Notes: generated by a model from the letters alone, not told the origin. Shown: positions 8,836 through 53,626, counted from the stretch's first letter. The stretch: DNA of 53,626 nt from a virus (IMGVR_UViG_3300030117_006365:1-53626), one strand, 5' to 3'. Translations and numbers: made by a program.

Positions 8836-8869
8836 TAAATAAAATTATAATTAAATAAAATTAAGTACA

Positions 8870-9154
8870 ATGGCAAAAACAAAAGAAAAAGAAATAAGAG
8901 TTAAAGAAAGAATGGAAAAAATTCACGACAAGCATTTGAAAGAAATGCAAGATTTAGTGAATACAATAAATGCAATACAATTTAATATCGGTAAAATGGA
9001 AGTTCAAAAACATACCGCTTTAGATGAAATGAAAAAACATCAAGGTAGAATTAGTGATTTTCAGAGCCTACTACTTAGGGAATATGGTTCTTTTGACGTA
9101 AATGTCAACGACGGTACTATAAATTGGCCTAAGGAAAAAGAAGATGAAAAATAA
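8870..9154 (+). CDS. Small coiled-coil hypothetical protein
   Basis: 94 aa, heptad-like helix followed by YGSFDVNVNDGTI. Confidence 0.7.
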   Translation: MAKTKEKEIRVKERMEKIHDKHLKEMQDLVNTINAIQFNIGKMEVQKHTALDEMKKHQGRISDFQSLLLREYGSFDVNVNDGTINWPKEKEDEK

Positions 9155-9371
9155 TATAATAAGAAAAATCACAATAGGTAGAGATTATAAAAATGACTCC
9201 ATGCATTATGCTGTTGGGCAAGAAGTTTATGGTGGGCATAAAATATGCGATATAATAGAGGAGGAAGATAAATATTGTATATATATTAGAAAAGAGGATG
9301 TAGTTATACCTTGGAAGGACTTCAATAAAAATATGGCTATATCGGTTGAGTATAATTTAGAGTATAAATGA
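9144..9371 (+). CDS. Hypothetical protein
   Basis: 75 aa, overlaps both neighbours in a tightly packed operon. Confidence 0.75.
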   Translation: MKNNIIRKITIGRDYKNDSMHYAVGQEVYGGHKICDIIEEEDKYCIYIRKEDVVIPWKDFNKNMAISVEYNLEYK

Positions 9372-9958
9372 AAGCCTACAAAGACTTTATTGTGACCCCA
9401 ATAGGAGAGCGTTATAATAATTCTAAAGAAATTGGCGATAAAGAACTTATACTTAACACTGAAGTATTTAATCACCAATATGTAAATAGAAAAGCAAAAG
9501 TAATCGCTACTCCACTATTATTTCAATCACCTATTAATGTAGGTGATGAAGTAATAGTACATCATAATGTATTTAGAAGATGGCATGATGTTAAGGGTAG
9601 AGAAAAAAATAGTAGATCTTACTGGGAGGATAATAAGTATCTAATAACTGAAGATCAAATATTTTTATATAATGAAAAAGCTATGCCTGGTTACAGTTTT
9701 GTTAAACCAATAAGATCAACAAATCCATATCATTATAATTTAGATTTAGATGTAGAAAAGCCACTAGTTGGTATTATAAAATACTCTGATGGAACTTATA
9801 ATAAAAAAGAGTTAATAGGTTTTACCCCGGGTAGCGAATATGAGTTTGTTATTAACGGTGAGAGATTATACAGAGTTTTAAATAAATTTATTACAATTAA
9901 ATATGAATATCAAGGAAACGAAGAAGAATATAATCCAAGCTGGGCACAAGGCGGTTGA
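9368..9958 (+). CDS. GroES-like protein (second, longer co-chaperonin-like gene)
   Basis: N-terminal DFIVTP...ELIL...AKVIATP...INVGDEVIVHH follows the Cpn10 pattern; a second FVKP...GIIKY...IGF half suggests a tandem domain. Confidence 0.5.
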   Translation: MKAYKDFIVTPIGERYNNSKEIGDKELILNTEVFNHQYVNRKAKVIATPLLFQSPINVGDEVIVHHNVFRRWHDVKGREKNSRSYWEDNKYLITEDQIFLYNEKAMPGYSFVKPIRSTNPYHYNLDLDVEKPLVGIIKYSDGTYNKKELIGFTPGSEYEFVINGERLYRVLNKFITIKYEYQGNEEEYNPSWAQGG

Positions 9959-39900: not shown

Positions 39901-42900
39901 AACAAGAGGGTGAAAAATCTAAAGCAGCAGTTGATGATGCTATTATGCAAAAACAAGGTGAGATAGAGGGTTTGTTAAATGTACTTAGATCACCACGTAG
40001 AAAAAATCAAAGTGTAGAACAATATAATGAAACTAAAAAAGACGCTTCAAGATTACTAAAACAAGCTAGATCACAAGAAAGTCAAATGATGTCTGTCTTA
40101 GCCCAAGGTAATGATTACGGTATGATGATACCTAAAATTAAAAATGGAAACCTAGTTGGAATGGATGTTGTTATAAATAGAAATGCAGCATTAACTGATG
40201 GTCAACTAAACACTGGTGCTCATGAATTTTTACATGCTCAATTTGCTAACACACTTAAAGGAGATCCTGGTGCTAGAAGTGTATTAGGTCAACAAATGAA
40301 TAAAATTATCAACACTGGTAAAATGCGATTTAAAAACCCTAGTGCTAAAGCTGAGTACGCTAATAGAATATCTATGTACGAAAAGGATAAAAGAGGGGAG
40401 GAGCAGTTTACTATACTATCTGAAATGATGAGAGATGGTAAGGTGTCTATAAATGAAGGAACGACACAGAAGTTTAAAGACTTTTTTAGAAGGTTTAGTA
40501 GAAATTATAACAATAGACCTATAGCTTTTAATGAAACTCAAGATGTATTAGACTTTATAAAAGACTTTGATTATAATATAAGAAAAAACAAACTAAGTCC
40601 TGCTATGGCAGAAATGCTACAGAAAGGAGCTAACGGAAGAATGTTTGAAGACGTCAAAGATAGTAAGACTAGAGATCAAATGAAATCTTTTAATAGAGCT
40701 GTTGATTTAAATAGAAGGCAGAATCCAGATTTAAAAAGAGAATACGATCAGTTTGTTCAAAACAGTGATGGGACTAGAAAATACGAAGACCACAAGATGT
40801 TTACAGACTCTCCAGATTATTATGGGGCTTATTTGAATATAGTTGAAGGGAGAGCTCTAGACGGTTTAATTCAGCATGGTATGACTGAACGTGGTTTACC
40901 ACCAGAAGCTTTAAGAGAGTTTACGAGAATGGCTAAGGAGGAGGTTGGAAGACGTTTCTTAGAAAACTACGACTACGATAAGAATGATAGTTTATTTGGT
41001 TGGTTAACTGGTGTGTCAGGAGGAGCTGGTATGTCTATTATATATAGAGCTAAAGGTGACGTGATGGTTAAATATAAGAAAGATAACAAAGCTGAACTAA
41101 CCTCTATAGATAAACCTGTTAGTGATGATGGTGCTAGACTAAGTGATGTGATACAGGACGAAAGAGATATACTGTTAGAAGAAATAGACAATCAAGATTT
41201 ATCTTTAAATAGAAGAAGAGAAGCTAAGCAGGCTGTTAGAGATCTTAAAGTTAAAGAAATGTTAAATTTCTCTGACAACGCTAGAAAAGCTATTATATTA
41301 AATATCCGTGAAATGGATATTCCATTAGATGGGTTAACATACAAGGGTGTTAAAGATCTTTTAATTAGTGTTGATAAAAAAGCTACATCAGAAAAGAAGA
41401 TTACTCCTAATGGACCTTTATTTCCAGTATTAAATGCTGTTGCTACTGAATTTGGTGTTGACCCATTAAGAATATTAGCTAAGCAAGATTTAAACGGGGA
41501 GCAAAGAGAAGCAGCTCAAAGTTACATACTAGACAAAACAACAAACGAAGATGGTAGCTTTAACACCGATTTATTAGATATGTTACCAGAGGGAGAAACG
41601 AGGAGTGGTGAGGCAACTGGTATAGCAAACACCAAACTAGGTCAATTGTATCAAACAGGTGCTAGGCTAAAAGTTGCTGAAGGTGCTGACAAAGCTTTAG
41701 GTCAAAAGAAAGCTCAAATAAAAAGAAGTAACATATCAAAAGCAGAGTTCTTAGATATATTTGGTATTGAACCAAATGGTAAACTTAGGAAAGGAACTAA
41801 AGCTGACGGTGCTATAAGAGCTTTAGTTGTTGCTACTGCTCAAATAGCTGCTAATCAAGATATGCGAATAAACGCATTAACAAATGGTACTACCAATGAG
41901 GCTGTTGCGGCTAAGTTGGGTGATGGAAGATCTGAGGTTATGCTTAGTAAAAAAATAAAAGCAGAAAACCTAGATGTGTTTCAAGATCGTTGGGCTGAAG
42001 CTATTAGTGGTTTAGATTCTATAAACGTTCACGATTGGAAGTCTATAAAAGGACACTTAGTCAATGTGTATGGTGATGTTATGGAAAACAACGAGCTAAC
42101 AGGTATGGCTAAAGATTGGGCCAAGTGGAGTCAAGAGTTTGATGAGTTGAAGTTACCAGATAACTTTGAAAACGTTAATCACTTAGATTATTACAATAGG
42201 GAAACATATGTAATATCTAAAACAAATGAAGCATTATTAGATACCAGTATATTAAAAATGTTTGCTGGTAATTTTGTTTCACCAGTTAAAAGTGTTACAG
42301 AGTTGTTTAATAGTAGAGACAGGGTTAATAAAGCTAGAGGTTCAATTGTTGATTTTGGAAATCACGCTATAGAGAATTTAAAATGGAAACCTGAAAAACT
42401 AATTAGAACGTTATTTACACAGTACCAAGGCATGTATGCTGGTGCTTATAGAATAGGTGATGGTAGATGGACCGTTAAAAAGGGTAGAGTTGTAGCAGCA
42501 CCATTACCAGAGGGTCAAACAAAACACGGAACAAACAGAGGTCAAGTTTTTACTGGAATAGAAGATTTTATATCTACACTATCTAAGATTAATGGTTTTA
42601 AAAATATAAAAGGAAAAAGTAGAAAACAAATAGGTGAGATGTTCAACGTTGATTTAAAAACGTTTTCTGAAACATCTGATGCAGCTATTAAAGATCAAGA
42701 TTACGAAGGTAGATTAAACCAAGCTAAGGAAGCTAGGGAGGCCGTACAAGACTTAGTGGATTTTTATGTTGATAGAATATACAATGGAGAGGCTCAATTT
42801 GAGGACCTAGCTATGTTAACTAGAATGTTTGGTTCTAATATGAAGTCTCCTATGAAAAGAGCGGCTAATTTAGCTTATATAGCTAAAGGTGCTTCTAGTA

Positions 42901-45900
42901 TACCATCAGATCAAAGAGGTAAAAAGTTAGAATATGAACACATGGTTCCAACTAACTTAAAGATATTACAACTGGTAGACAGTTATGTTAACCAAAGAGG
43001 TGTTGTTGATGGATTTTGGGACGATTATACTGTCGCTGTTATACCTAAGACTATGGATAGAGTTTTAATAGATTCTGGTCTTAGAGATTTCATGCAACTA
43101 GGTTATCAACCTGGTATGGCCTCGTGGAAAAGATACTATAACAACCAAACCTTTGGTAAGAAAGGAATAGTACCAATTAAAAACATACAAACCGGAGAAA
43201 TAGTAGGACAAGAGTTTGTTAAAGCTAGTGATAAGTTTGTTGTCAATAAAAATGCTCAAACAGTTATACAAAATACTAGAGCTGAGGTTATGAAAAGTAA
43301 GTGGGGTTGGAAAAAGAAAAAACCAGAGATAAGAGGTATGTCTGCGTTTGACTTTGATGAAACACTTATTATAGATGGAGATAACTTTATAATGGCTAAC
43401 AACCCTGAGACTGGTGAGACAGAAAGAATAAGCTCTGAGGATTGGCCAACTAGAGGAACTGAATTAATGGATCAAGGTTGGGAGTTTGATTTTGATGATT
43501 TTATAAATGTAAGAGGAGGTGTTGAAGGTCCATTGTTTCAAAAGCTTTTAAATAGAATAGAAAAGTATGGACCAGAAAATAACTTTATATTAACAGCTAG
43601 ACCTCAAGAGTCCGCTATTGCTATACATGGTTGGTTAAAATCTAAAGGTGTTGAAATACCATTAGAAAATATAACTGGATTAGGTGATAGTAAAGGTGAT
43701 TCTAAAGCTGCTTGGATATTAGAGAAGTACAAAGAGGGTTACAACGATATGTATTTTGTTGATGACGCTTTGCCAAACGTGAAGGCTGTTAAGCATGTTA
43801 TGGATCAGTTAGATGTTAAGGGTAGTTCTGTTCAAGTTGGTGTAAGAAAAATTGGTGGTTTACTAGTTGATACCAATACACCTGAAGGTAAAAAGATTTG
43901 GGAAGAAATAAAAAACATACCAACTGTTAGATCTTCAACAACCAACTCTGTTAAGAAGTTTGGTCGATGGCTATTAGACACAGCAACACCTGAGGGCAAA
44001 GCTATACTAAAAGAATTTGAAAGCATACCAACAGTGAGCTCAAGTGAACCAGGTAGAGTTGTTAAAAGAGATAGTGACGCTATGAAAAGCAAATCTCTTA
44101 AAGAAAGAATTATTGACACTCAGTCTATAGATAAAGATTTTAACGACATGTTAGCTAGAACTTCTTTTGTTGGAGCTGACAGAGTTATATCAAAATCAGA
44201 AGCTCAACGTTTGGGTATAGGTAAAGGTAGATATGATTGGTTTGTTCCACCTTCAGCTGAGGATATGAAAGGTTTATTCTATAGGTTTTTAGGTAAAGGG
44301 GAACAGGGTAACGCTGATATGAAGTGGTACAGAGAGTTCTTGTCTGATCCATATGCTAAAGGAATAAAAGCTTGGACGAACTATGTTCAAGGTATGGCTA
44401 ATGATTATACGGCTCTTAGAAAAGCCATGCCAAATGCAGCTAAAGTGTTAAAACAAAACCTACCAAATTCTCCGTTTACAGGCGATGCTGCTATTAGAGT
44501 ATACCTGTGGAATAAAAATGGTATTGAAATACCAGGTTCCTCGCCCCAACAAGTTCAACAAATGGTTGAATTCGTAGAGGCTGATCCTGATTTAGTTGGT
44601 TTTGCTGAAGCCTTAAGTAGAGTTAGTAAGAGACCAGAGGGATATGTACAACCTACAGAAAATTGGGCTGTACAGAGTATAGCGTATGATTTAAAAGAAG
44701 CTGGTTATACTTTAGGCAGAAAAGATTTTTTACATGAGTGGGTTGAAAATAAAAACATTATTTTCTCAGATAAAAATTTAAATAAAATAGAGGCTATATA
44801 CGGTAAGCCAACTAGAACAGCTTTAGAAAACATGCTTCATAGAATGGAGACTGGTGTTAATAGACCTACCGGTAGAGATGGTGCTACTAATAGATTTTTA
44901 AACTGGATAAATGGTTCGGTTGGAGCAGTGATGTTCTTTAATATGAGATCTGCTTTACTACAAACTATATCTACAGTTAACTTTATAAACTGGGAGGATA
45001 ATAACATATTTAGAGCCGCTCAAGCTTTTGCTAATCAACCTCAATTCTGGAGTGATTTCGCGATGATATTTAATTCAGATATGCTTAAACAAAGAAGATC
45101 TGGATTACAAATAGATGTCAACGCTAATGAGCTATCTAATGCTTTTAGAGATGGAAGAAGTAAACCAGAAGCTGTTATTAGATGGTTGTTAGAAAAAGGT
45201 TTTATGCCTACTCAAATAGCTGATAGTTTTGCTATAGCTATGGGTGGTTCTAGTTTTTATAGAAACAGGTTGAATGATTATATAAGAGAGGGTGCTACAC
45301 CAGAGCAAGCGCAGAATCAGGCTTGGTTAGACTTCCAAGAGATAGCTGAAGAAACACAACAGTCTTCTAGACCTGATTTAATATCAGAACAACAAGCTGG
45401 TGTTTTAGGTAGATTAATACTTGCTTGGCAAAACACTCCAATGCAGATGACTAGGTTAACAAAGAAAGCTTTGTCCGATCTTGCTAACGGTAGAGGTAGT
45501 GCTAAAGCTAATATATCAAGAATAATGTATTATGGATTTATTCAAAATATTATATTTGGTATACTACAAAGTGGATTAGCGTTTATTGCTTTTGGTGATG
45601 AAGAGGAAGAAAAGAAAAAGAAAACAGAAAGAGTTTTAAATGGAGCGTTTGACACGTTATTAAGAGGTACTGGGGTTGGTGGTGCTGTTGTAGCAACATT
45701 AAAAAACACTATATTAAAATTCATAGAACAGAGAAAGAAAGGTTGGACGGGTGATCAAACATATACTATTATTGAAGCCATAAACTTATCACCTCCTCTT
45801 GGTAGTAAGTTTAGAAAAATATATAACGCTATACAAACTGACAAGTTTAATAAGGGTGTTAGTGAGAAGTTAAAATATAGAATTGAAAATCCATTTTTAA

Positions 45901-46451
45901 GTATAGTTGGTAATGTTGTTGAAGCATTAACTAACTTCCCAATGGCTAGATTAATAAACAAAGCTAATAACATAGAAGAAGCTATAACTGGTAATCACGA
46001 TCTTTGGCAAAGAATAGCAATGTTAGGTGGTTGGAATAGATGGACTGTTGGTGCTGAAGACGAAGAGCTAGAAGAAGCTAAACAAGAAGTTAAAGATGAA
46101 AAGGCTGAAAAAAAGAAAATAGAAAAAGAAATAAAAAAAGAGGAAGAGAAAAAGAAAAAAGAAGAAGAAAAGAAAGCTGAAGAAGAGAAAAAGAAAAAAG
46201 ATGGAATAAAACAAGTTAGATGCTCTGCTACCAAATCAAACGGTCAAAGATGTAACATGATGGTTGAGACTAAAAACAAAACAGCTAAGTGTGTGTATCA
46301 TAGAGATTTAACTGATGAGGAGAAAAAAGAAGGTACTGATAGGGATAACGATGGAATAAAGGAGTTTAGATGTACAGCAACAAAGAAAAATGGTCAACGT
46401 TGTAAAAATAGAACAGAGAATAAAAACAAGAAATGTTATGCTCATCAATAA
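36903..46451 (+). CDS. Giant multidomain (polyvalent) internal virion protein: zincin motif, HAD-like domain, C-terminal Cys/His repeats
   Basis: 3182 aa; HEFLH at 40221-40235; DFDET (43350), LTAR, K and VDD (43761) HAD motifs; two C-x9-C-x10/12-C-x2-H repeats at the C-terminus; Gly/Ala hydrophobic stretches. Confidence 0.75.
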   Translation: MSKKEYWVGDNLYTVDDEHEEEFLQNHENAKLKEEDTDDYTVGEDGQRYTVNKNDKEEFLEKYPEAKLLSGNQSSSTESATVGQSTQARKNQYDDSEFATEGILSESQLNLNSLSDHNIDFGPMPEITTDITGVSEEKAQKLLQDKWMEHGFTFEQKTVGLNRIEVTALNGEKEIFNLGGFKGTQEEEAKRMDAWMRERAQHQGDKLQTLLSHVNVTQDQTSTIRPTQDNAQDQINKLREAWELEGMSDEDVLEVYNKYMDNNRKFVQYDMDEGYGPGASQWVDDMHKKQDQLEKAGFNKSGRDFKKNIDNLNTLVEGRKDYRKQEALKKYEAQTGVSIDGMYDDDGITDKGIKILNSQEYKNIYNSLKVDKDKQQKHLDKYFLNSKTQDFLEANLKKEIEKFSNNPFVKSSTQKELLELAIDKKNAMSDKLTEKVNKFNVAHGDLENIYTELSDAAKWLNSIGNGEEKLEEIKAKHDLTTEEGVRAAQAELNLFQAQYQEKRDRFDFLQKKRGQYEKFANNIAKDLNSKDALTEGQITTVIDALNRNYQQGTVMSVQLMNATIDLAQGIGEAGDMILSIPKEIVKAIDNPAVDGYIQANPGVNSNTSNKEKENWWSELNASIDDWQKGTQLLIEKPTKFNEINSLSSFGEWVSGMAAGQVPILATMAVSGGASLYIMGASSAGSKWREMNDAKDEYNRTGGLYGTNHAWGTMFANSVFTGTAEALSERITLGQVNRMKGILGFGDVAKLGFEKTLRQSVFQTARLAATDRLTEGVSESVAQLSSNFADVVSGSKSYADIWEGIPESFVSGVIISQGLATPGLGKALSAPFRSADTNQRVGEMSKKINELTKRAGRFDIDSKERKAIEAEIAGLVDKSNSLIEQDIKRVNLLTDGEKKALINIEKQNYEARKKAEDIMLDKKLTDKEKKQQLADLQAKVDMRAKTKNDIIGKYEPNVVDANYEREMDWFKRQAELSNQRGDIKTKVREVSRDEFIDLNAKQEGEKSKAAVDDAIMQKQGEIEGLLNVLRSPRRKNQSVEQYNETKKDASRLLKQARSQESQMMSVLAQGNDYGMMIPKIKNGNLVGMDVVINRNAALTDGQLNTGAHEFLHAQFANTLKGDPGARSVLGQQMNKIINTGKMRFKNPSAKAEYANRISMYEKDKRGEEQFTILSEMMRDGKVSINEGTTQKFKDFFRRFSRNYNNRPIAFNETQDVLDFIKDFDYNIRKNKLSPAMAEMLQKGANGRMFEDVKDSKTRDQMKSFNRAVDLNRRQNPDLKREYDQFVQNSDGTRKYEDHKMFTDSPDYYGAYLNIVEGRALDGLIQHGMTERGLPPEALREFTRMAKEEVGRRFLENYDYDKNDSLFGWLTGVSGGAGMSIIYRAKGDVMVKYKKDNKAELTSIDKPVSDDGARLSDVIQDERDILLEEIDNQDLSLNRRREAKQAVRDLKVKEMLNFSDNARKAIILNIREMDIPLDGLTYKGVKDLLISVDKKATSEKKITPNGPLFPVLNAVATEFGVDPLRILAKQDLNGEQREAAQSYILDKTTNEDGSFNTDLLDMLPEGETRSGEATGIANTKLGQLYQTGARLKVAEGADKALGQKKAQIKRSNISKAEFLDIFGIEPNGKLRKGTKADGAIRALVVATAQIAANQDMRINALTNGTTNEAVAAKLGDGRSEVMLSKKIKAENLDVFQDRWAEAISGLDSINVHDWKSIKGHLVNVYGDVMENNELTGMAKDWAKWSQEFDELKLPDNFENVNHLDYYNRETYVISKTNEALLDTSILKMFAGNFVSPVKSVTELFNSRDRVNKARGSIVDFGNHAIENLKWKPEKLIRTLFTQYQGMYAGAYRIGDGRWTVKKGRVVAAPLPEGQTKHGTNRGQVFTGIEDFISTLSKINGFKNIKGKSRKQIGEMFNVDLKTFSETSDAAIKDQDYEGRLNQAKEAREAVQDLVDFYVDRIYNGEAQFEDLAMLTRMFGSNMKSPMKRAANLAYIAKGASSIPSDQRGKKLEYEHMVPTNLKILQLVDSYVNQRGVVDGFWDDYTVAVIPKTMDRVLIDSGLRDFMQLGYQPGMASWKRYYNNQTFGKKGIVPIKNIQTGEIVGQEFVKASDKFVVNKNAQTVIQNTRAEVMKSKWGWKKKKPEIRGMSAFDFDETLIIDGDNFIMANNPETGETERISSEDWPTRGTELMDQGWEFDFDDFINVRGGVEGPLFQKLLNRIEKYGPENNFILTARPQESAIAIHGWLKSKGVEIPLENITGLGDSKGDSKAAWILEKYKEGYNDMYFVDDALPNVKAVKHVMDQLDVKGSSVQVGVRKIGGLLVDTNTPEGKKIWEEIKNIPTVRSSTTNSVKKFGRWLLDTATPEGKAILKEFESIPTVSSSEPGRVVKRDSDAMKSKSLKERIIDTQSIDKDFNDMLARTSFVGADRVISKSEAQRLGIGKGRYDWFVPPSAEDMKGLFYRFLGKGEQGNADMKWYREFLSDPYAKGIKAWTNYVQGMANDYTALRKAMPNAAKVLKQNLPNSPFTGDAAIRVYLWNKNGIEIPGSSPQQVQQMVEFVEADPDLVGFAEALSRVSKRPEGYVQPTENWAVQSIAYDLKEAGYTLGRKDFLHEWVENKNIIFSDKNLNKIEAIYGKPTRTALENMLHRMETGVNRPTGRDGATNRFLNWINGSVGAVMFFNMRSALLQTISTVNFINWEDNNIFRAAQAFANQPQFWSDFAMIFNSDMLKQRRSGLQIDVNANELSNAFRDGRSKPEAVIRWLLEKGFMPTQIADSFAIAMGGSSFYRNRLNDYIREGATPEQAQNQAWLDFQEIAEETQQSSRPDLISEQQAGVLGRLILAWQNTPMQMTRLTKKALSDLANGRGSAKANISRIMYYGFIQNIIFGILQSGLAFIAFGDEEEEKKKKTERVLNGAFDTLLRGTGVGGAVVATLKNTILKFIEQRKKGWTGDQTYTIIEAINLSPPLGSKFRKIYNAIQTDKFNKGVSEKLKYRIENPFLSIVGNVVEALTNFPMARLINKANNIEEAITGNHDLWQRIAMLGGWNRWTVGAEDEELEEAKQEVKDEKAEKKKIEKEIKKEEEKKKKEEEKKAEEEKKKKDGIKQVRCSATKSNGQRCNMMVETKNKTAKCVYHRDLTDEEKKEGTDRDNDGIKEFRCTATKKNGQRCKNRTENKNKKCYAHQ

Positions 46452-46454
46452 ACG

Positions 46455-46472
46455 TGTAATAATAATAGTATA
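46455..46472 (+). promoter_or_regulatory. Copy of recurrent intergenic motif (candidate late promoter)
   Basis: TGTAATAATAATAGTATA immediately after the giant gene's stop codon. Confidence 0.35.
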
Positions 46473-46490
46473 ACAAAAAAGATTTAAAAT

Positions 46491-46670
46491 ATGATAAATT
46501 GGATAAATTCCTGGACATCAGGTAATAAGAAAGATAGATATGAACTAACATTTAGAATAAGTACACTAACTGTATTTGAACTAATGTTTTGTCCTTGTTG
46601 GAAGTGCAAGAATAAAGGTACTTGCCCAAGATTTAGATTTATGGTTTTAAACTTTGGGTTTGAAATATAA
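46491..46670 (+). CDS. Small Cys-cluster protein (59 aa, not in ORF track)
   Basis: Manual translation MINWINSWTSGNKKDRYELTFRISTLTVFELMFCPCWKCKNKGTCPRFRFMVLNFGFEI; A-rich start context. Confidence 0.7.
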   Translation: MINWINSWTSGNKKDRYELTFRISTLTVFELMFCPCWKCKNKGTCPRFRFMVLNFGFEI

Positions 46671-46738
46671 TGTGTCCTTGTCCGATATGTGTGACAGCAA
46701 TCGTTCTTGCGGCATGTAGTTATAAGTTGTTAAAATGA
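46670..46738 (+). CDS. Putative 22-aa micro-protein
   Basis: MCPCPICVTAIVLAACSYKLLK; start overlaps the upstream stop (TAATG) and stop overlaps the downstream start (ATGA). Confidence 0.5.
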   Translation: MCPCPICVTAIVLAACSYKLLK

Positions 46739-47172
46739 AATGGATAGGTAGAGAGTATTGGCATTATGACGTAAAGACTTACTATTGGGAGTCAAGTGAC
46801 ACAGATGCTGTTTGGATACCACTAGGTGGAGGAGTTGTAGAAGGGGAAACAACTAACCCTTCATTAACTTACGCTAAAGAATACTTTATGGCCCCATATG
46901 ATGGTAGTATTGTGTTGATAAATGTAGCAGCCGGTGGAAGCAGTACTGGTAACGTAGCTTTTACTTATCATAAAAATGCTAGCTCTGGAGCGGTGGGTAC
47001 AACCCATACAACTGGAAACTTTGGAGGCGCAGGTGGTGGTTCATTAAGTACCATTGGAGAAGTTAATGACTGGACATTTGAAAAATATGACAAAATATTT
47101 ATAAAAGCAAATCCAAGTGCAGTTAAGTTTTACTATAATTGTACGGTGGTATATAGATACATAATAACATAA
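46735..47172 (+). CDS. Hypothetical beta-sandwich-like structural protein (short fibre-tip-like)
   Basis: 145 aa; FMAPYDGSIVLI...FEKYDKIFI...CTVVYRY pattern, Gly-rich. Confidence 0.55.
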   Translation: MKWIGREYWHYDVKTYYWESSDTDAVWIPLGGGVVEGETTNPSLTYAKEYFMAPYDGSIVLINVAAGGSSTGNVAFTYHKNASSGAVGTTHTTGNFGGAGGGSLSTIGEVNDWTFEKYDKIFIKANPSAVKFYYNCTVVYRYIIT

Positions 47173-47173
47173 T

Positions 47174-47560
47174 ATGGCTTTAACAGGTAAAAAATATACT
47201 AGAGTATTCTCTACTGGTGGTAGTGACTCTGATAACGTATCAACTGATTTAAAAGATAAGTTTAAGGCAGATTTTGATAACAACGATTATCTTAATCTCC
47301 CAAACATGAATGCTACATTGTCTCCAGTTTTACATATACTACAACAACTAACAGAGGAGTTGGATTATCTCAGAACTGAGATATCTTCTAATAAAGACCA
47401 TAAGATAACTGTAGGTTCTAACACAACATTATCGTTTGGGGAGATGACAGAAACATTGGTTAAAGGTAAACCAGCTTACAGTATAGTATTAACAGTAACA
47501 AGAGATTTTGGTGGCAAAACTGGTGTGGTAACTAAAACATCAACTATAACACTAACATGA
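47174..47560 (+). CDS. Hypothetical protein with a short coiled coil
   Basis: 128 aa; LHILQQLTEELDYLRTEISSNK. Confidence 0.7.
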   Translation: MALTGKKYTRVFSTGGSDSDNVSTDLKDKFKADFDNNDYLNLPNMNATLSPVLHILQQLTEELDYLRTEISSNKDHKITVGSNTTLSFGEMTETLVKGKPAYSIVLTVTRDFGGKTGVVTKTSTITLT

Positions 47561-47561
47561 T

Positions 47562-47885
47562 ATGGCTATTTATAAAAACATAACATCAAACACTGAAACA
47601 CCTTTAATAGCTAAGATAACGTCAGCCGGGTCTATAGCTAAAGGAACTAAAGTGGCTAATCCTGGTTCTATAAAATCTATAGCTATAGCTAATTCTCACG
47701 CGACAACAAACACCTTGGTTAATTTATATTTATCAGAAGGTGTTACAGATTACCAAATAATACAAACTGTTATACCAGCACAAACAACTTTAATATTAGA
47801 TCACAACGTGGCCTTTGATGCTACTAAATATACACTTAATTTTAAAGCTAGTGCTACATGTGAGATAACCGTAATAATTAAATAA
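47562..47885 (+). CDS. Hypothetical small structural protein
   Basis: 107 aa, beta-rich; IKSIAIANSH...VNLYL...VIPAQTTLIL. Confidence 0.65.
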   Translation: MAIYKNITSNTETPLIAKITSAGSIAKGTKVANPGSIKSIAIANSHATTNTLVNLYLSEGVTDYQIIQTVIPAQTTLILDHNVAFDATKYTLNFKASATCEITVIIK

Positions 47886-48377
47886 ATGGAATTAGAAGTA
47901 ATTAGAATAAGTAGTGGCACTGATAGTACAAATGGTATATTATTAGAGACAATACAACAAGGTAATGAAATAGATGGAATTTTTAAACAAAAAAAATTTC
48001 TAGCATACACACTAGAAGATGAATATAGAAGTGAAAAAGTATTTGGGGAAACAAGGATACCGGATGGTAGGTATAGGCTGGGCCTTAGAAAGGTTGGCGG
48101 ATATCATGCGAAATATTCTAAGCGCTTTCCTCATATTCACGTTGGGATGCTCCACGTGCTTGACGTTCCTGGTTTTGAGTATATACTTATTCATTGTGGA
48201 AATACTGACGAACATACAGCGGGCTGCTTACTCGTCGGAGATTCCCAAGAAAACAATCAAATCACGAAGGACGGTTTTATAGGTAAATCCACTCAAGCAT
48301 ATAAAAGAATTTATCCACGGATAGCAGAAGCTATTGATTGTGGAGAGGAAGTAACAATAACATATAAAACAATATAA
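47886..48377 (+). CDS. DUF5675-type protein, candidate endolysin/peptidoglycan-acting enzyme
   Basis: YTLEDE...TRIPDGRY...DVPGFEYILIHCGNTDEHTAGCLLVG; His...Cys arrangement like L,D-transpeptidase-fold enzymes. Confidence 0.7.
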   Translation: MELEVIRISSGTDSTNGILLETIQQGNEIDGIFKQKKFLAYTLEDEYRSEKVFGETRIPDGRYRLGLRKVGGYHAKYSKRFPHIHVGMLHVLDVPGFEYILIHCGNTDEHTAGCLLVGDSQENNQITKDGFIGKSTQAYKRIYPRIAEAIDCGEEVTITYKTI

Positions 48378-48378
48378 T

Positions 48379-48732
48379 ATGAGTTTTAAGTTAAGTGATA
48401 AACAAATGCAAATGCTTATTGAAACACAAACAGCACCACCATCTACTGGTGATTTGTTTCTATGGGGGTATGTAGATCGTAAGGAGAAGAAAGCTAAAAA
48501 GAAAAAAGATAAAGCTGCTGATCTTAGACAGAGAGCTAACGAAGCTGAAGCCGCTGGGAGGTGGCGTAAAGCTCAAAGACTCAGAAAGAGAGCGGAAAGA
48601 AAATCTGCTAAAGGACAAAAAAAGCAAGACCAAGCTAGCAAGATGAAATCAAGACCAGATTATTGGTTGAGAAGAGGTGAGAGCGCTGGAGGAAGTGGTG
48701 GTGGATATGGAGATGATTTTACTAGTGTTTAA
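48379..48732 (+). CDS. Small, highly basic protein with MSFKL leader
   Basis: 117 aa; Lys/Arg/Ala-rich helical core. Confidence 0.65.
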   Translation: MSFKLSDKQMQMLIETQTAPPSTGDLFLWGYVDRKEKKAKKKKDKAADLRQRANEAEAAGRWRKAQRLRKRAERKSAKGQKKQDQASKMKSRPDYWLRRGESAGGSGGGYGDDFTSV

Positions 48733-48747
48733 AATAAATAATTAATT

Positions 48748-49029
48748 ATGAGATCAAGAAAACAAATGACACCTGGCATGAAGAAGTGTAAGGATAAATA
48801 TGGTTCACCGTACAAAGCTGCAGACGCTAACTTAGTTAAGGGGGCTTCTGAAGTTGCTCAAGGTAATATGAATGCGGCGGTTAATCAAAAGACAACAACG
48901 GAAAAACTAGCTGATATAGGGCAACAACAAGTTAATAAATACATGGGAGACGACGCTATCGATTTTGGTAGTTATGGTTACACGTCTAATCAACAGATAC
49001 AAGAAAACAACGAAGCTGCAAGCGTATGA
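48748..49029 (+). CDS. Small protein with RKQMTPG leader and SPYK motif
   Basis: 93 aa; leader matches ORF 51797; SPYKAADANLVKGA matches ORF 35454. Confidence 0.7.
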   Translation: MRSRKQMTPGMKKCKDKYGSPYKAADANLVKGASEVAQGNMNAAVNQKTTTEKLADIGQQQVNKYMGDDAIDFGSYGYTSNQQIQENNEAASV

Positions 49030-50075
49030 GACTTTTAATATTATTATTGTTTGTTTGCACTATAGGTAGTGCTCAAATAAAAGACTTCTTTAAATACTCA
49101 ACATTCTACACTTCCATGACAATGGGTACATCTTTCACTGAGGAAGAAGATTATGTTGCTATAGATAAAGGTTATGAAGATGTTACCTGGGTTAATCCAT
49201 ATGATTATAACTTAACAATCGGTTTGAGAAAAATTGCTCGTATGGATTATGAGTACAAGGTTAAAACGTGGTATTACGGAACTGAAGATGGAGTTAGTGA
49301 CAACGTTACTATTGGTAATGCTATTGGATGGGAATATCTTTTAAACTATTCTTTTATACGTGAGCGTGGGGAAAAGTTTAATAATCAAAATCTTTGGTTA
49401 AGATATTTGGGTAATAGCTGCGTAACAAAACTACAGTATACGGATAACCAAAGAGTTAATTTAAGATTTGGGTCATTTGATACTAGATTTAGATTAACAA
49501 AAGGTAATTGGGATTTCACTGTTGGTGCGGTAGCTAGAATACACCCTGTTTATGGGGTAACTCCAATAGATGATTTCTGGGTACCAGGAGAAAACACGTT
49601 CCAGGATTTAGCGGAAGACTTTGGTTATGCCGCAGAACCTTGGATGCAGGGATTTTATATCGACCAGAATTGGTACGATGTTAGTGGTGGAGATTCCGTA
49701 CTTATCGCTACCTCAAACGACGAGTTTTTCCACCACTATTTCGGAGACGCAGTTGCTAGGTTTAATGAGAGGGAATTAGAGAAGTTGGGATTACAAAGAG
49801 AATTAAGCGCTGTTATTGGTTTAGCTTACTACAAGTACACTCCTAAAATGTGGTTACACGTTTGGGCTAATTGCTTACCATTACACTATGGGTTAGATGA
49901 ATATTCATTTGAATACGGAAAAGAAAAATATGACAACATAGAATGGGATGCTGGTATTGTTTTTGGTTCTAGAATAACAAAATCTTTAGGAATGTTTGTA
50001 GAAGGAACTCACATGAAGTACTGGGAAAAACCAGTATATGAAGTGAAGTTTGGTTTTAACTATTTAATACTTTAA
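49026..50075 (+). CDS. Putative outer-membrane beta-barrel protein
   Basis: Signal peptide MRLLILLLFVCTIGSA|Q; alternating aromatic/hydrophobic strands; C-terminal YEVKFGFNYLIL resembling a beta-signal. Confidence 0.65.
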   Translation: MRLLILLLFVCTIGSAQIKDFFKYSTFYTSMTMGTSFTEEEDYVAIDKGYEDVTWVNPYDYNLTIGLRKIARMDYEYKVKTWYYGTEDGVSDNVTIGNAIGWEYLLNYSFIRERGEKFNNQNLWLRYLGNSCVTKLQYTDNQRVNLRFGSFDTRFRLTKGNWDFTVGAVARIHPVYGVTPIDDFWVPGENTFQDLAEDFGYAAEPWMQGFYIDQNWYDVSGGDSVLIATSNDEFFHHYFGDAVARFNERELEKLGLQRELSAVIGLAYYKYTPKMWLHVWANCLPLHYGLDEYSFEYGKEKYDNIEWDAGIVFGSRITKSLGMFVEGTHMKYWEKPVYEVKFGFNYLIL

Positions 50076-50077
50076 TT

Positions 50078-50269
50078 ATGGCGTTTAAAATGAAAAGACC
50101 TCCATATAAGGAACACTCTAAATTTGCTCCGTTTTCGGACGAACATAAATACGGTGGGGACGATGACACGGATGGGCCTTATGGCATGCATCCATCAGAC
50201 TGGAAGAGTCCAGAAAGAATAGAAAGAGAAAAAGCAGAAAAAGAAAATAAAAAAGAAGATAATGAATAA
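50078..50269 (+). CDS. Small protein with MAFKMK leader
   Basis: 63 aa; MAFKMKRPPYK; overlaps the next start. Confidence 0.65.
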   Translation: MAFKMKRPPYKEHSKFAPFSDEHKYGGDDDTDGPYGMHPSDWKSPERIEREKAEKENKKEDNE

Positions 50270-51056
50270 ATATATATTAATACTATTTGCGTTTATTGGC
50301 TCGTTCGCTAATGCGCAAGGATATGACTTTCAACAATTGTGTTTAGATTGTGTAGAGCAAAATGGTTTTTATTGTGGAGATGATCCAGCAAACTGGACAC
50401 AATACTCACCTAACGGTTGTGTACCTAACGGTGCTGGTGGATTAGAATATTTAAATGACGGTTGGGAAGACTGTGTAGATGGTAGTGATGAGAATGGAGC
50501 AGTACCAACACCAGCTGAAGAGTGTGGACCCGTTAATCCACCTGATGGTTGTGATACTGTCTACGTTGATGTTCCAATTGTAGAAATAGATACAGTAGAA
50601 GTTGAAGTTCCATTTTATATATATGAAACCGAATTTATATTTGACACAATTATTGAAACAGAATACATCACAAACATCGTTATAGACACGTTTGAGATTG
50701 AAACATTTGTTCCGGAATACATTTATATAACTGATACAGTTTTTGTTTACGAGGATGTGTTAGACACATTATTCGTTGATGTTATTGAATACGTTGAAGT
50801 TGTTGTTTATGATACTGTCGTGGAAACACAAACAGAATATATTGAGATTTTCGTTGTTGACACCGTTGTAGAGTATGTAGAAGTAATAAACACTGAGTAT
50901 ATCGATTGTGACTCTGGTTTACCTTGTAATTCTGGAATACAAGAGGTTATAGATAAATCACTTCAAAACTCTGTAATATATAATCTACAGGGACAAGCGA
51001 TATTAACAAGAGAAGGATTATACATAGAGAACGGTAAAATTTATTATAAAAAATAA
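50262..51056 (+). CDS. Secreted protein with LDL-receptor class A-like motif, acidic VxDT repeats and T9SS-like C-terminal signal
   Basis: Signal peptide ...SFANA|Q; NDGWEDCVDGSDE; repeated (V/I)xDT; GIQEV...IYNLQGQ...GLYIENGKIYYKK. Confidence 0.7.
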   Translation: MNKYILILFAFIGSFANAQGYDFQQLCLDCVEQNGFYCGDDPANWTQYSPNGCVPNGAGGLEYLNDGWEDCVDGSDENGAVPTPAEECGPVNPPDGCDTVYVDVPIVEIDTVEVEVPFYIYETEFIFDTIIETEYITNIVIDTFEIETFVPEYIYITDTVFVYEDVLDTLFVDVIEYVEVVVYDTVVETQTEYIEIFVVDTVVEYVEVINTEYIDCDSGLPCNSGIQEVIDKSLQNSVIYNLQGQAILTREGLYIENGKIYYKK

Positions 51057-51400
51057 TGGCTAAAGAATTATCAGAAGATAGCAAGTTTCAAATAAGTGTT
51101 AAAACATTGATAGCTATAGTGATGGCTGTTGTTACAGTCGTTTCAGCTTATTTTGGTTTAATGGCAACAATCAACTCTAAGTTTTCAGAACTTGAAGTTA
51201 AGGTTAATGAAGCATTGGAACTACCAAAACCAGGTACTGGTACATATACTATAGACATGGGCGATCCAGCTGCTACCAACACGTGGCCTCCAACTAGAAT
51301 GGAGTTTAACATGAAAGATCAAATGGCTCGTAATAAAATCGATGCAGTAATAAAGGAGATGGATGAGATAAAAGAAGATATAAAATATTTAAGAAAATGA
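51056..51400 (+). CDS. Single-pass membrane protein with coiled-coil segments
   Basis: 114 aa; TM segment LIAIVMAVVTVVSAYFGLM; coupled to both neighbours. Confidence 0.7.
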   Translation: MAKELSEDSKFQISVKTLIAIVMAVVTVVSAYFGLMATINSKFSELEVKVNEALELPKPGTGTYTIDMGDPAATNTWPPTRMEFNMKDQMARNKIDAVIKEMDEIKEDIKYLRK

Positions 51401-51795
51401 TGAAACAAATAGACATTTCAAACTACCTTTATATATTACTAATGCTACTAGCCTTTGGTTGTGGTACTGTTATGGGTCAAGATTTTATCAATGGAGATTT
51501 TGATGAGAAGATAGCTAAAGATATTGTTGCTGTAGAGTTTTGGGCTGATTGGAATTCTGCTAATCAATTCAACGATTTAGTTAAATTAAAAGAGTGTGAG
51601 AAGTATAGATTAGATATAATGGCTAAAGCTGATATACAAGCTGAATATAATATAACAGGTATTCCAACTGTTATTATATTTGATAACGGAATAGAGAAAG
51701 CTAGGTTTAATCCTAATATAATGTTTAAATTAGATGCTTGTAAAAAAACAGTGCAACATTCTGTTGACACAATTAAACTAAGTAAATTTCAGTAA
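51397..51795 (+). CDS. Exported thioredoxin-fold protein lacking CxxC
   Basis: VAVEFWADWNSAN in place of WCxxC; YNITGIPTVIIFDNG cis-Pro motif; hydrophobic signal sequence. Confidence 0.75.
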   Translation: MMKQIDISNYLYILLMLLAFGCGTVMGQDFINGDFDEKIAKDIVAVEFWADWNSANQFNDLVKLKECEKYRLDIMAKADIQAEYNITGIPTVIIFDNGIEKARFNPNIMFKLDACKKTVQHSVDTIKLSKFQ

Positions 51796-51796
51796 T

Positions 51797-52015
51797 ATGA
51801 ATTATAGGAAGCAAATGACACCTGGGTTAAAAAAATTAAAAGATGATAGCCCTTTCAAAAACCCACAAAGTGGATTTGGAATGTGGAATCAAGAGAGAAA
51901 ATTAAGAAGACAGGATAGAGTTAGAGACAGAAGAATAGCAAAAGGTAAATTAAGTGTCGACCCAGGTATGCCTCATTTGGGTTATCAAAAAACACCTAGA
52001 GGAGGTTGGGATTAA
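51797..52015 (+). CDS. Small basic protein with RKQMTPG leader and SPFK motif
   Basis: 72 aa; MNYRKQMTPGLKKLKDDSPFK. Confidence 0.7.
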   Translation: MNYRKQMTPGLKKLKDDSPFKNPQSGFGMWNQERKLRRQDRVRDRRIAKGKLSVDPGMPHLGYQKTPRGGWD

Positions 52016-52026
52016 AATAAATTATT

Positions 52027-52815
52027 ATGGCTTATAAAATGAGAAGGGGTAATAGACCGGCTTTTAAGTCGCTTGGAAGTACACCATATAAAGCAGAAGA
52101 ATATCACGAATCAGAACCAACTGAGGTTGTAGAGCCAGATCCAGTTGAGACGCCGGAGCCTGTAGAAGTTGAAACAAACGAACCAACTGAAGATTTTAAC
52201 ATGATGGATAATCCTCCACCAGAAGACAACCAAGATCAAAATGTGCCAGAACCACCTCCAGAAGAAGATCGTATTGAAAACGAAGATGACACAGAGGAGG
52301 TTGTTGAAGAAAAAGAAGAAAAAGAATATGATGATCCAGAATTACAAAAGCTAGCTGATGACGCGAAAGCGTTTGAAGAGGAAGCTTTAAAAGCAGAAGA
52401 AGAAGGTAGTTTGTATCAGGATTTATCACCAGAAGAACAGGCTGCGATTGATGCTAATATGGAAAAATTTGCAACTTGGCCACCTAAGTTTGAAAATCAA
52501 GCAGAAGCTAATGCACATGGTTTTTATATAGACGGTAGTGGTAATGTGTGGCCAGACTCTGCAAAAGGCACCGCCAAGTACGACCCAACAAGTTTAATAC
52601 CAACAGGTGCTGCTTTTAATGCGTTTAAAGGTGGTATAAAATTATTAGGTAAAGGTGGGCAATGGTTAGCTAGAACGTTAAAACCAGCGAAAACTATTGC
52701 AAAAGTTAAAACAAAATTAGATAAATTTAAAGACAAAGATGGAAAATATCCACCAGGATATGATCCATTTCCATATAACACAAACGTTCAAGCTCAATAT
52801 GAGGATGAAAAATAA
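52027..52815 (+). CDS. Low-complexity protein of the MAYK-leader family
   Basis: 262 aa; MAYKMRRGNRPAFKSLGSTPYK, Glu/Pro-rich tract like ORF 31029, cationic amphipathic C-terminal part. Confidence 0.7.
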   Translation: MAYKMRRGNRPAFKSLGSTPYKAEEYHESEPTEVVEPDPVETPEPVEVETNEPTEDFNMMDNPPPEDNQDQNVPEPPPEEDRIENEDDTEEVVEEKEEKEYDDPELQKLADDAKAFEEEALKAEEEGSLYQDLSPEEQAAIDANMEKFATWPPKFENQAEANAHGFYIDGSGNVWPDSAKGTAKYDPTSLIPTGAAFNAFKGGIKLLGKGGQWLARTLKPAKTIAKVKTKLDKFKDKDGKYPPGYDPFPYNTNVQAQYEDEK

Positions 52816-52846
52816 AAAAAAGGGAGCCGAAGCTCCCTTTATTGTT
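52814..52846. terminator. Bidirectional intrinsic terminator between convergent gene blocks
   Basis: AAAGGGAGC-CGAA-GCTCCCTTT; the loop reads cUUCGg on the - strand; A-run on the left and T-rich sequence on the right. Confidence 0.9.
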
Positions 52847-53026
52847 TTAACTATTTTTAATAGCTTGAATTTGTTTTCTCACATTCTGAGCAGCCTCCTT
52901 AATTGTTTGCATACTCTTCCTAGCTCTAGTTCCGGCTGATTTATTTCCACCCATAAACTTTTCTATTTCTTCATGTGCGCTGTGCATTTCATCTTGCATA
53001 ACGTCTAATAATTCTTCTAAATTCAT
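52847..53026 (-). CDS. Histone H1-like (Hc1-family) small DNA-binding protein (59 aa, not in ORF track)
   Basis: Manual translation MNLEELLDVMQDEMHSAHEEIEKFMGGNKSAGTRARKSMQTIKEAAQNVRKQIQAIKNS; GNKSAGTRARK is the Hc1-like signature. Confidence 0.8.
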   Translation of the reverse strand: MNLEELLDVMQDEMHSAHEEIEKFMGGNKSAGTRARKSMQTIKEAAQNVRKQIQAIKNS

Positions 53027-53044
53027 ATTTTAAATTTTATTAAA

Positions 53045-53626
53045 TTAAACAACTTCACATGATCCACCAGCACAAGCTAACTCGCCTGATAAATCTGTGT
53101 TATCTTCAGCTTCAATAACTTTTGTTAAATCTACATTAGATAATACTTTGGACATTTTATTATATTTAGCTTCGTCAATGTCCTCAAACGGAGCTTGAGT
53201 ATATGTACCACCATCATATGGTAATACTGACAACCCATTGTAATACTCTCTATTTTCCCACATCCAATCACCTGCTTTTTTCCATTCATTCTCTTTTAAA
53301 GATATTGTAGCTGAAACATTGTGAGTGTTACTACCTCGTCTGTGGCCAGGTCGTATCCACTCTTGTGCAACACGCTTAACTCTCTCAAGAGTATCAAATG
53401 GTGATTCAGTTCTAAGTATTGAACCATTAGGTGCTTTTTGTGGTATGGAAATAACAGCGGTATCGTGAGGTCTGAAGTACTCATCTTCAATTAATTCATT
53501 ATGATTACCTAATAGATAGTTATATATAGCCTCATTCTTCCCTACGCGCATTCTACGGACATAATAATCATTATGCCAAGCATGAATACCCGAGGATGTT
53601 CCGAGGACCAGAGATGTCGTCCCTGC
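53045..53626 (-). CDS. nrdJ: Class II (adenosylcobalamin-dependent) ribonucleotide reductase, C-terminal part, truncated by the window edge
   Basis: Frame open to the window end: AGTTSLVLGTSSGIHAWHNDYYVRR...THNVSATI...GLSVLP...YTQAPFEDI...ACAGGSCEV with the C-terminal Cys pair. Confidence 0.9.
   Translation of the reverse strand, partial: AGTTSLVLGTSSGIHAWHNDYYVRRMRVGKNEAIYNYLLGNHNELIEDEYFRPHDTAVISIPQKAPNGSILRTESPFDTLERVKRVAQEWIRPGHRRGSNTHNVSATISLKENEWKKAGDWMWENREYYNGLSVLPYDGGTYTQAPFEDIDEAKYNKMSKVLSNVDLTKVIEAEDNTDLSGELACAGGSCEVV

Follow-up and report, generated by a model that had tools for sequence, protein, structure and literature searches.

A Barrel, Inner-Membrane Anchor, and CXXC-Less Thioredoxin Gene Trio as a Possible Outer-Membrane Disruption Module of Bacteroidota Phages

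Introduction

How phages of Bacteroidota breach the outer membrane of their hosts is a question that one viral locus raises in concrete form. The DNA considered here is the IMG/VR viral contig IMGVR_UViG_3300030117_006365:1-53626 (53.6 kb, completeness rating 81%), the whole of which we call the window. At positions 49026–51795 of its + strand lie four closely packed genes that appear to encode an outer-membrane beta-barrel, a secreted protein of 264 amino acids (aa), a single-pass membrane anchor, and a periplasmic thioredoxin-fold protein that has no CXXC motif. What is this cassette for? An earlier note had proposed that the four gene products form one multi-component system of the cell envelope, with a type IX secretion system (T9SS)-like cargo among its parts and with noncanonical outer-membrane lysis as one of several functions. 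We find that the conserved unit is a trio of barrel, anchor, and thioredoxin rather than four genes, that this trio lies among lysis genes, and that it may, tentatively, serve to disrupt the outer membrane.

The available portions of earlier reports show why such a module would be of interest. Kongari et al. (2018) count 91 of 677 phages as spanin-less, including Bacteroides and Croceibacter phages, and suggest as possible that an outer-membrane protein acts as the o-spanin. A bioRxiv article (515445) likewise puts spanin-less phages at ∼15%, and a preprint describes a peptide alternative to spanins in phage phiKT. In the relevant passages, a review of the Crassvirales refers to “spanins and lysins” only in general terms, and few genes of flavobacterial phages are given lysis functions by Bartlau et al. 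The literature searched on spanins, beta-barrels, thioredoxins, T9SS, and flavobacterial phages yielded no description of the trio, in agreement with the earlier view that the combination is not a described phage system.

Results and Discussion

The cassette and its export signals

The four genes were confirmed as open reading frames (ORFs), with the following coordinates.

49026..50075, + strand: predicted beta-barrel of the outer membrane, 349 aa, outside any named family, signal peptide GSA↓Q
50262..51056, + strand: putative secreted accessory protein, 264 aa, signal peptide ANA↓Q, Cys-rich N-domain, acidic repeat, conserved tail
51056..51400, + strand: predicted type II single-pass membrane protein, 114 aa, transmembrane (TM) segment at ∼18–39, periplasmic helical C-terminus, i-spanin-like in shape
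51397..51795, + strand: predicted periplasmic thioredoxin-fold protein, 132 aa, signal peptide VMG↓Q, no CXXC

As had been proposed, the last three are translationally coupled: the stop codon of the 264-aa gene and the start of the 114-aa gene share 1 nt (TAATG), and a 4-nt overlap (ATGATGA) joins the 114-aa gene to the 132-aa gene. Upstream, the stop of a 93-aa gene overlaps the barrel start (ATGA). A fifth ORF, which had gone unmentioned, lies at 50078–50269 (63 aa; see below).

Signal peptides were judged by eye from their n, h, and c regions, and this reading agrees with the earlier one in placing Gln directly after each of the three cut sites. That residue is conserved in 23/23 barrels, 30/30 homologues of the 264-aa protein, and 35/35 thioredoxins. 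A Gln following the signal peptide is a described preference of Bacteroidota and, in the available text, has also been noted for Porphyromonas phage genes.

Nearly all genes of the window, including those for the large terminase, the portal, structural proteins, and two giant ORFs, are carried on the + strand. The cassette is located at the 3′ end of this late operon, in what we read as the lysis region of a marine podophage that infects Flavobacteriia. The terminase has its nearest relatives in podophages of Flavobacterium, Cellulophaga, and Tenacibaculum (43% identity). These relatives, the Gln rule for signal peptides, and one contig of a Flavobacteriaceae metagenome-assembled genome (MAG) that carries the trio point to Flavobacteriia as the host. 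No integrase is found among the annotated window genes, and the phage is apparently lytic.

Three proteins for three compartments

The proposal of a barrel at 49026 is borne out by modeling. AlphaFold2 returns ∼15 antiparallel strands (predicted local distance difference test (pLDDT) 71.4; predicted TM-score (pTM) 0.68), and the best Foldseek matches in the PDB are outer-membrane barrels, namely NanC (1.3e-4), FapF, EstA, and OMPLA; since the TM-scores of these matches are ∼0.3, they indicate the class and not the family. The homologues end in an aromatic residue (...NYLIF) after an alternating hydrophobic strand, with F last in most and L in the window copy. A signal peptide, an antiparallel barrel, and a C-terminal aromatic beta-signal, which are the features of the outer-membrane beta-barrel class, are thus all found. 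The ESM Atlas adds a lead, and no more than that: the named clusters nearest to the protein (0.93) consist of outer-membrane barrels. The models and these features support the assignment of the 49026–50075 product as an outer-membrane beta-barrel. No sequence relative was found in Pfam, NCBIfam, PHROG, or the PDB, whether with the window protein or with 25 diverse members of its family, and the same set gave no Pfam or NCBIfam match to PorP/SprF or PorV profiles at E ≤ 1. The family is nonetheless large, with 364 representative clusters at 50% identity in a library of 1.84 billion proteins.

The proposed membrane anchor is supported as well: no protein encoded on the coding strand of the window other than the 114-aa one is convincing as a TM protein. 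Its N-terminus holds 17 strongly conserved residues, with Lys on the N side of the TM segment and an acidic flank on the C side. The last ∼40 aa contain no Pro or Gly and follow a heptad-like pattern; this helix, like the topology, is a prediction from the sequence itself. These properties suggest a type II inner-membrane protein with a short, putatively coiled-coil-like periplasmic helix. At least 7993 relatives were found in a set of 5.8 billion proteins, and the ESM Atlas returns viral hypotheticals only. Some relatives carry names in their source databases, “copper chaperone CopZ” among them, that appear to be errors of automatic annotation and were set aside.

The 132-aa protein matches the Pfam Thioredoxin family PF00085 (E = 8.8e-7; 29.3 bits against a gathering cutoff of 23.5), and a profile of its family matches thioredoxins of the PDB with E as low as 6e-15. 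The CXXC motif is missing in 35 of 35 aligned homologues, in which the cis-Pro is kept; where a thioredoxin has W-C-G-P-C, the window protein has W-A-D-W-N-S-A-N and the family pattern is W-A-x-W/F-N-x-x-N. The protein is therefore predicted to be redox-inactive, as had been suggested. We also considered whether it might be an o-spanin lipoprotein, given a lipobox-like Cys (FGC), and rejected this identity. The Cys is missing in many homologues and the signal peptidase I site before Gln is kept in 35/35, which argues for a periplasmic protein and not a lipoprotein.

Prediction of a complex of the three mature parts (barrel 17–349, anchor 40–114, thioredoxin 28–132) scored 0.05, a value that weighs neither way on binding.

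The trio, not the four genes, is the conserved unit

We compared the cassette with two sets of viral loci. The window's clade comprises 48 loci with a barrel relative (33–94% identity), whose ORFs were searched with profiles. A distant subfamily, with barrels ∼30% identical, comprises 81 loci, of which 80 were kept from 221 that encode a relative and one came from another representative. Individual loci are denoted by L and a number.

The order barrel, 264-aa protein, anchor, thioredoxin occurs in 37/48 clade loci. Among the exceptions are loci that are cut: three end after the anchor gene, five in or just after the barrel gene, and L036 ∼330 nt past the 264-aa gene. The most distant clade locus (L048, 33%) carries barrel, anchor, and thioredoxin in that order and has no 264-aa gene. 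The 4-nt overlap of anchor and thioredoxin genes recurs in 32 of 38 clade loci, and the barrel and 264-aa genes are separated by 1–3 nt in 21 of 42; the spacing from the 264-aa gene to the anchor gene ranges from an overlap up to 4 kb.

In the distant subfamily, an anchor homologue adjoins the barrel in all 81 loci, and 78 have a thioredoxin homologue too; the other three end at the locus edge. The order of the trio is common to 80/81, with L050 reading anchor, thioredoxin, barrel. The trio is thus present on contigs of widely differing length, from 4 kb up to 168 kb. The 264-aa protein is found in none of the 81 loci. The conserved unit is therefore the trio, not four genes: all four co-occur in most of the window's clade and do not in the distant subfamily. 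The broader claim of a multi-component envelope system divides in the same manner, with compartment features and very strong linkage in its favor and the four genes as one unit against it. The protein features, together with the gene linkage, suggest an outer-membrane, an inner-membrane, and a periplasmic protein that work as a set.

Bacterial genomes were scanned with patterns as well. The clade alignment found none, and the distant subfamily found one contig, L131, from a Flavobacteriaceae MAG. There the end of a 27.8-kb contig carries the trio (7983–9877), with ORFs upstream of it that by eye resemble HtpG and FabH.

The trio lies among lysis genes

Upstream of the cassette are the following features.

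47886..48377, + strand: DUF5675 protein, 163 aa, candidate endolysin (C82/YkuD-like peptidase fold), Pfam PF18925 E = 1.6e-24
48019..48282, + strand: embedded +1-frame ORF, 87 aa, holin-like candidate, ∼30 hydrophobic residues then a basic C-terminus, within the DUF5675 gene

The DUF5675 match (86.4 bits against a gathering cutoff of 26.7) is of note in that a 2026 preprint, in its available part, groups DUF5675 structurally with C82 peptidases among candidate lysins. Of the 48 clade relatives, 30 have this gene within their locus; in the distant subfamily it immediately follows the trio in 6 of the 81 loci.

Neighboring genes were clustered, and representatives of the clusters were named by family searches. 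A typical layout in the distant subfamily is a 2-TM gene (80 aa), a second 2-TM gene (84 aa), barrel, anchor, thioredoxin, endolysin, a Phage_holin_4_1-like gene (E = 7e-4, under the cutoff), and a multi-TM gene of 383 aa. The endolysin slot is filled by three unrelated types: PG_binding_1 plus Amidase_2 (17 loci), an endolysin-like protein of PHROG-33083 (23), and DUF5675 (6). An endolysin-type gene lies within 3.5 kb of the trio in 46/81 loci, and within 400 bp in 39; a small holin-like TM gene is present in 47/81. Lysis cassettes usually show this pattern, in which the catalytic gene is exchanged and the membrane-protein genes around it stay fixed. This neighborhood suggests a lysis role for the trio, and among the functions listed in the earlier note it is noncanonical outer-membrane lysis that the context favors.

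In the window's clade, a homologous 2-TM gene directly precedes the anchor gene in 17 loci, and one variant of it matches PHROG 9987 “holin” (3.7e-5). The window has no such gene; it has the embedded ORF. Its frame is open for 85–92 codons in 29 of 30 unique clade homologues and for 73 in L049. When the DUF5675 genes are recoded synonymously, the longest open frame averages ∼30 codons (P ≤ 0.004 for every gene). The control genes of the window have no comparable embedded frame. DUF5675 genes of the distant subfamily lack the ORF (P 0.8–1.0), and their loci have separate holin-like genes. No family match was found for it. The ORF, whose shape and conserved open frame fit a holin, is probably a holin-like gene.

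No canonical o-spanin was found in the window: a lipobox scan of its coding strand picked up nothing beyond the embedded ORF, one site internal to a large gene, and the unconserved thioredoxin Cys already discussed.

In 12 distant loci (L066, 10534–10959, and 11 others) a second small barrel-like outer-membrane protein of 141 aa is encoded downstream of the cassette, with an ANA↓Q signal and a Pfam OMP_b-brl match of E = 0.0018, which is under the cutoff.

The 264-aa protein occupies a variable slot

The N-domain of the 264-aa protein is Cys-rich and has an LDL-receptor-A-like DGSDE motif, for which the Pfam Ldl_recept_a match (E = 0.11) is not significant. It is followed by an extremely acidic, beta-branched repeat (V/E/I/T/Y/D) whose length differs among relatives, and by a C-terminal tail of ∼50 aa that alignments show to be conserved, with two Cys. 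Homologues span 189–305 aa. The AlphaFold2 model is poor (pLDDT 46.7, and ∼25 in the repeat region), and a fold search with this poor model gave nothing under E = 1.8.

The T9SS cargo assignment was not supported. The protein has no match to TIGR04183, TIGR04131, or PF18962 at E ≤ 1; its conserved tail is ∼50 aa, against ∼70–100 aa for such a sorting domain, and is modeled as a short helix and three strands, with no sandwich of the kind found in the T9SS C-terminal domain (CTD); and Foldseek against the CTD of RgpB gives E = 8.8.

Between the barrel and 264-aa genes lies the additional ORF.

50078..50269, + strand: small basic ORF, 63 aa, with an 8-nt overlap with the 264-aa gene

A tblastn match to it was found in L013 alone among the 48 clade loci, and the ORF is variable and outside the conserved module. 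Contigs from a seawater run (X5) join 50080 to 50268 and skip it, which indicates a natural variant with the barrel gene directly before the 264-aa gene.

Throughout the clade, the interval between barrel and anchor genes holds the 264-aa gene and assorted small basic ORFs. A gene similar to staphylococcal nuclease (Pfam SNase, 1.3e-12) lies between the 264-aa and anchor genes in L012 (7983–8411) and in four other clade loci. In L020 and L021 (7047–7238), and restricted to these two, a Pro-rich lipoprotein of 63 aa is encoded between the barrel and 264-aa genes; its shape is o-spanin-like.

The interval is empty in most distant loci, and in 14 of them (L052–54, L076, L081, L084, L085, L087, L095, L103, L107, L110, L129, and L130) it encodes lipobox proteins of 136–242 aa. 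K/D/E-rich residues follow the lipobox Cys in 11 of these 14, and they resemble the surface-export signal of Bacteroidota. The 264-aa protein is an accessory of the window's clade, encoded downstream of the barrel gene in a slot whose contents vary, so that the barrel may take an exchangeable, probably surface-directed, partner.

A possible role in outer-membrane disruption

Our preferred reading, which we regard as quite possible and hold tentatively, is that the trio is a spanin-like module for outer-membrane disruption in Bacteroidota phages, in which an integral barrel replaces the lipoprotein o-spanin; the role is read from the genomic context. Barrel, anchor, and thioredoxin would be exported via Sec, signal peptidase I would cut the barrel and the thioredoxin to expose Gln, and the beta-barrel assembly machinery (BAM) would insert the barrel. 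A holin, for which the embedded ORF is the candidate, would release the DUF5675 peptidase and the murein cage would be removed. The trio would then destabilize or fuse the outer membrane, with the dead thioredoxin as a periplasmic link or trigger. What the analysis shows are the genes, the export features of their products, the folds of two of these, the linkage, and the neighboring lysis genes; that the three proteins touch one another, when they act, and that they act in lysis are matters that we infer.

A fuller version of this proposal is more doubtful, though still conceivable. Here the trio would be an unrecognized, very common three-part “barrel spanin” of marine Bacteroidota phages, made of a barrel, a short inner-membrane coiled coil, and a dead thioredoxin, to which some clades add a variable surface-exposed partner, and which in the window's clade would have as its companion a holin gene concealed within the endolysin gene, in the +1 frame.

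Several observations count against a disruption module of this kind. The periplasmic part of the anchor is ∼55–75 aa, which is short for bridging the periplasm alone. The three endolysin families were not found within 3.5 kb in 35/81 distant loci, and a short flank explains only 6 of these 35. L035 has the barrel and 264-aa genes and no anchor or thioredoxin within 5.2 kb downstream. Outer-membrane proteins without a lysis role can neighbor phage lysis genes, as lambda bor does, and the slot behind the barrel gene hints at a role at the cell surface, since it encodes surface-type proteins, either the 264-aa protein or, in 14 loci, a lipoprotein. No cultured phage was found to carry the module: DNA and protein searches of GenBank phages gave no match for the region, the barrel, the anchor, or the distant barrel, and only two weak partial matches for the thioredoxin. 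Finally, the trio of L131 stands beside genes that look by eye like housekeeping genes; that piece may have been mis-binned, or the copy may be domesticated or mark the edge of a prophage.

The contents of the slot also speak for surface remodeling, by which the barrel and a variable partner would alter the surface of the infected cell for superinfection exclusion or receptor masking, and the anchor and thioredoxin would aid assembly or signaling. The slot carries fast-varying exported proteins, and there are precedents in lambda Lom and Bor and T5 Llp, which are phage-encoded outer-membrane proteins that act in such ways. The trio persists, however, in distant loci, in most of which the slot is empty, the exchanged endolysins beside it indicate a lysis cassette, and the genes end the late operon of an apparently lytic phage, at which stage exclusion would protect little. 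We consider surface remodeling unlikely. Control of lysis timing is somewhat less probable again. In such a scheme the anchor would be a holin or antiholin with logic like that of T4 T/RI, the thioredoxin-fold protein its regulator, and the barrel an envelope sensor. It gains from the 114-aa protein being the sole standard TM protein on the coding strand of the 53.6-kb window, from the translational coupling of its gene to that of a periplasmic protein, and from the place of this pair among holin-like genes. Yet two or three other holin-like genes are already present in most distant loci, the window's clade has the embedded holin-like ORF, and a regulator would not obviously need the dedicated barrel that is kept in 81/81 distant loci.

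A T9SS-linked pair, with the 264-aa protein as type IX cargo and the barrel as a PorP/SprF- or PorV-like adaptor, would account for the 1–3 nt between the two genes in half of the clade loci in which the distance was taken. Flavobacteriia hosts possess a T9SS, and the last ∼30 residues of the 264-aa protein are loosely like the end of a type A CTD. The profiles and the fold comparison with RgpB given above speak against the cargo, as does the absence of a PorP_SprF match (E ≤ 1) for the barrel, and the barrel persists without the 264-aa protein in every distant locus; we regard this pairing as very improbable. The same holds for an uptake porin, a nutrient channel that would boost host metabolism during infection. 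Phage-encoded porins exist, and in BFVD phage OmpC- and PhoE-like proteins weakly match the barrel fold (E ∼1e-3, TM ∼0.25). These fold matches are generic, however, the genes lie within the late operon, and a porin leaves unexplained both the obligate link to anchor and thioredoxin and the lysis-gene context. The disruption module remains the reading that we prefer.

Should it be correct, the trio would be a new means of bursting Gram-negative cells, a natural case of a thioredoxin fold reused without redox chemistry, and a help in annotating three large families of marine viromes that are listed as “hypothetical”. The module is abundant, with at least 7993 anchor relatives, 364 barrel clusters, and 221 viral loci for one subfamily, and it offers a concrete, testable candidate for the breach of the outer membrane by Bacteroidota phages. 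If surface remodeling were true instead, the trio would represent a system, widespread among phages, for rebuilding the envelope of flavobacteria.

Other features of the window

Beyond the cassette lies a feature that marks the end of the late operon.

52819..52840, both strands: bidirectional terminator-like hairpin, 9-bp stem with 5 GC pairs, T-runs on each strand

This hairpin is the strongest terminator-like one (9 pairs) listed for 46300–53626, and the same scan found no strong terminator-like hairpin in the interior of the cassette. A scan for sigma-70 promoters was at chance level, with 32 found against 28.9 expected. Among sequencing runs, one contains 0.92 of the sampled words and may be the source of the window. 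One run of an RNA library gave a single 478-nt contig over 51694–52171 with 8 differences, which is not proof of transcription, and the lack of RNA cover elsewhere carries no weight.

Elsewhere on the + strand, a GroEL-like chaperonin is encoded by the phage at 3753–5321 (PHROG 5725, E = 2.9e-137). The giant ORF at 36903–46451 (3182 aa) contains, as read in its translation, an HExxH-type motif, a DxDxT motif (HAD-like), a long K/E-rich stretch, and two C-terminal Cys/His-rich repeats. Six + strand genes, starting at 34420, 35454, 48748, 50078, 51797, and 52027, have in common a basic N-terminal motif, M-A-F/Y-K... or ...R-K-Q-M-T-P-G..., then S/T-P-F/L/Y-K. One of the six matches a PHROG ejection/structural family, and many more small ORFs with such a motif occupy the variable gaps of related loci. 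The motif may direct internal proteins to the capsid or mark them for processing.

Comparison with known systems

The closest known systems are the two-component spanins of the lambda Rz/Rz1 type. Like them, the trio belongs to a lysis cassette beside holin and endolysin genes, has coupled or overlapping genes, includes a partner predicted to be a type II inner-membrane protein with a helical periplasmic domain, and would presumably link the inner and outer membranes. It differs in that it has no conserved outer-membrane lipoprotein and has an integral barrel of ∼330 aa in its place, in the third, always-present periplasmic protein with a thioredoxin fold, and in the much shorter periplasmic part of the anchor compared with Rz. 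Scans of the window proteins against profile libraries gave no sequence similarity between the trio proteins and spanin families. The disruptin of phage phiKT (gp28), the known route to outer-membrane disruption other than spanins, would fill the same gap, namely disruption of the outer membrane without a recognizable spanin; it is one small cationic peptide, whereas the trio consists of three exported proteins of different compartments.

Other likenesses are more partial. Lambda Lom and Bor and T5 Llp are phage-encoded and enter the host outer membrane, as the barrel would, and bor adjoins the lambda lysis genes. They are the products of solitary moron genes in temperate phages, or of an early exclusion gene; they belong to known families and have no obligate inner-membrane and periplasmic partners, whereas the barrel has obligate partners and no family. 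The T4 holin T and its periplasmic antiholin RI likewise join a single-pass membrane protein to a secreted periplasmic partner in a lysis programme; T is a protein of 218 aa with a large periplasmic domain and there is no barrel, so that the likeness to the trio is one of description only. Finally, the 132-aa protein has in common with the thioredoxin family PF00085 the fold, the profile, and the cis-Pro loop, and its own family is set apart by the replacement of CXXC and by export through a signal peptide.

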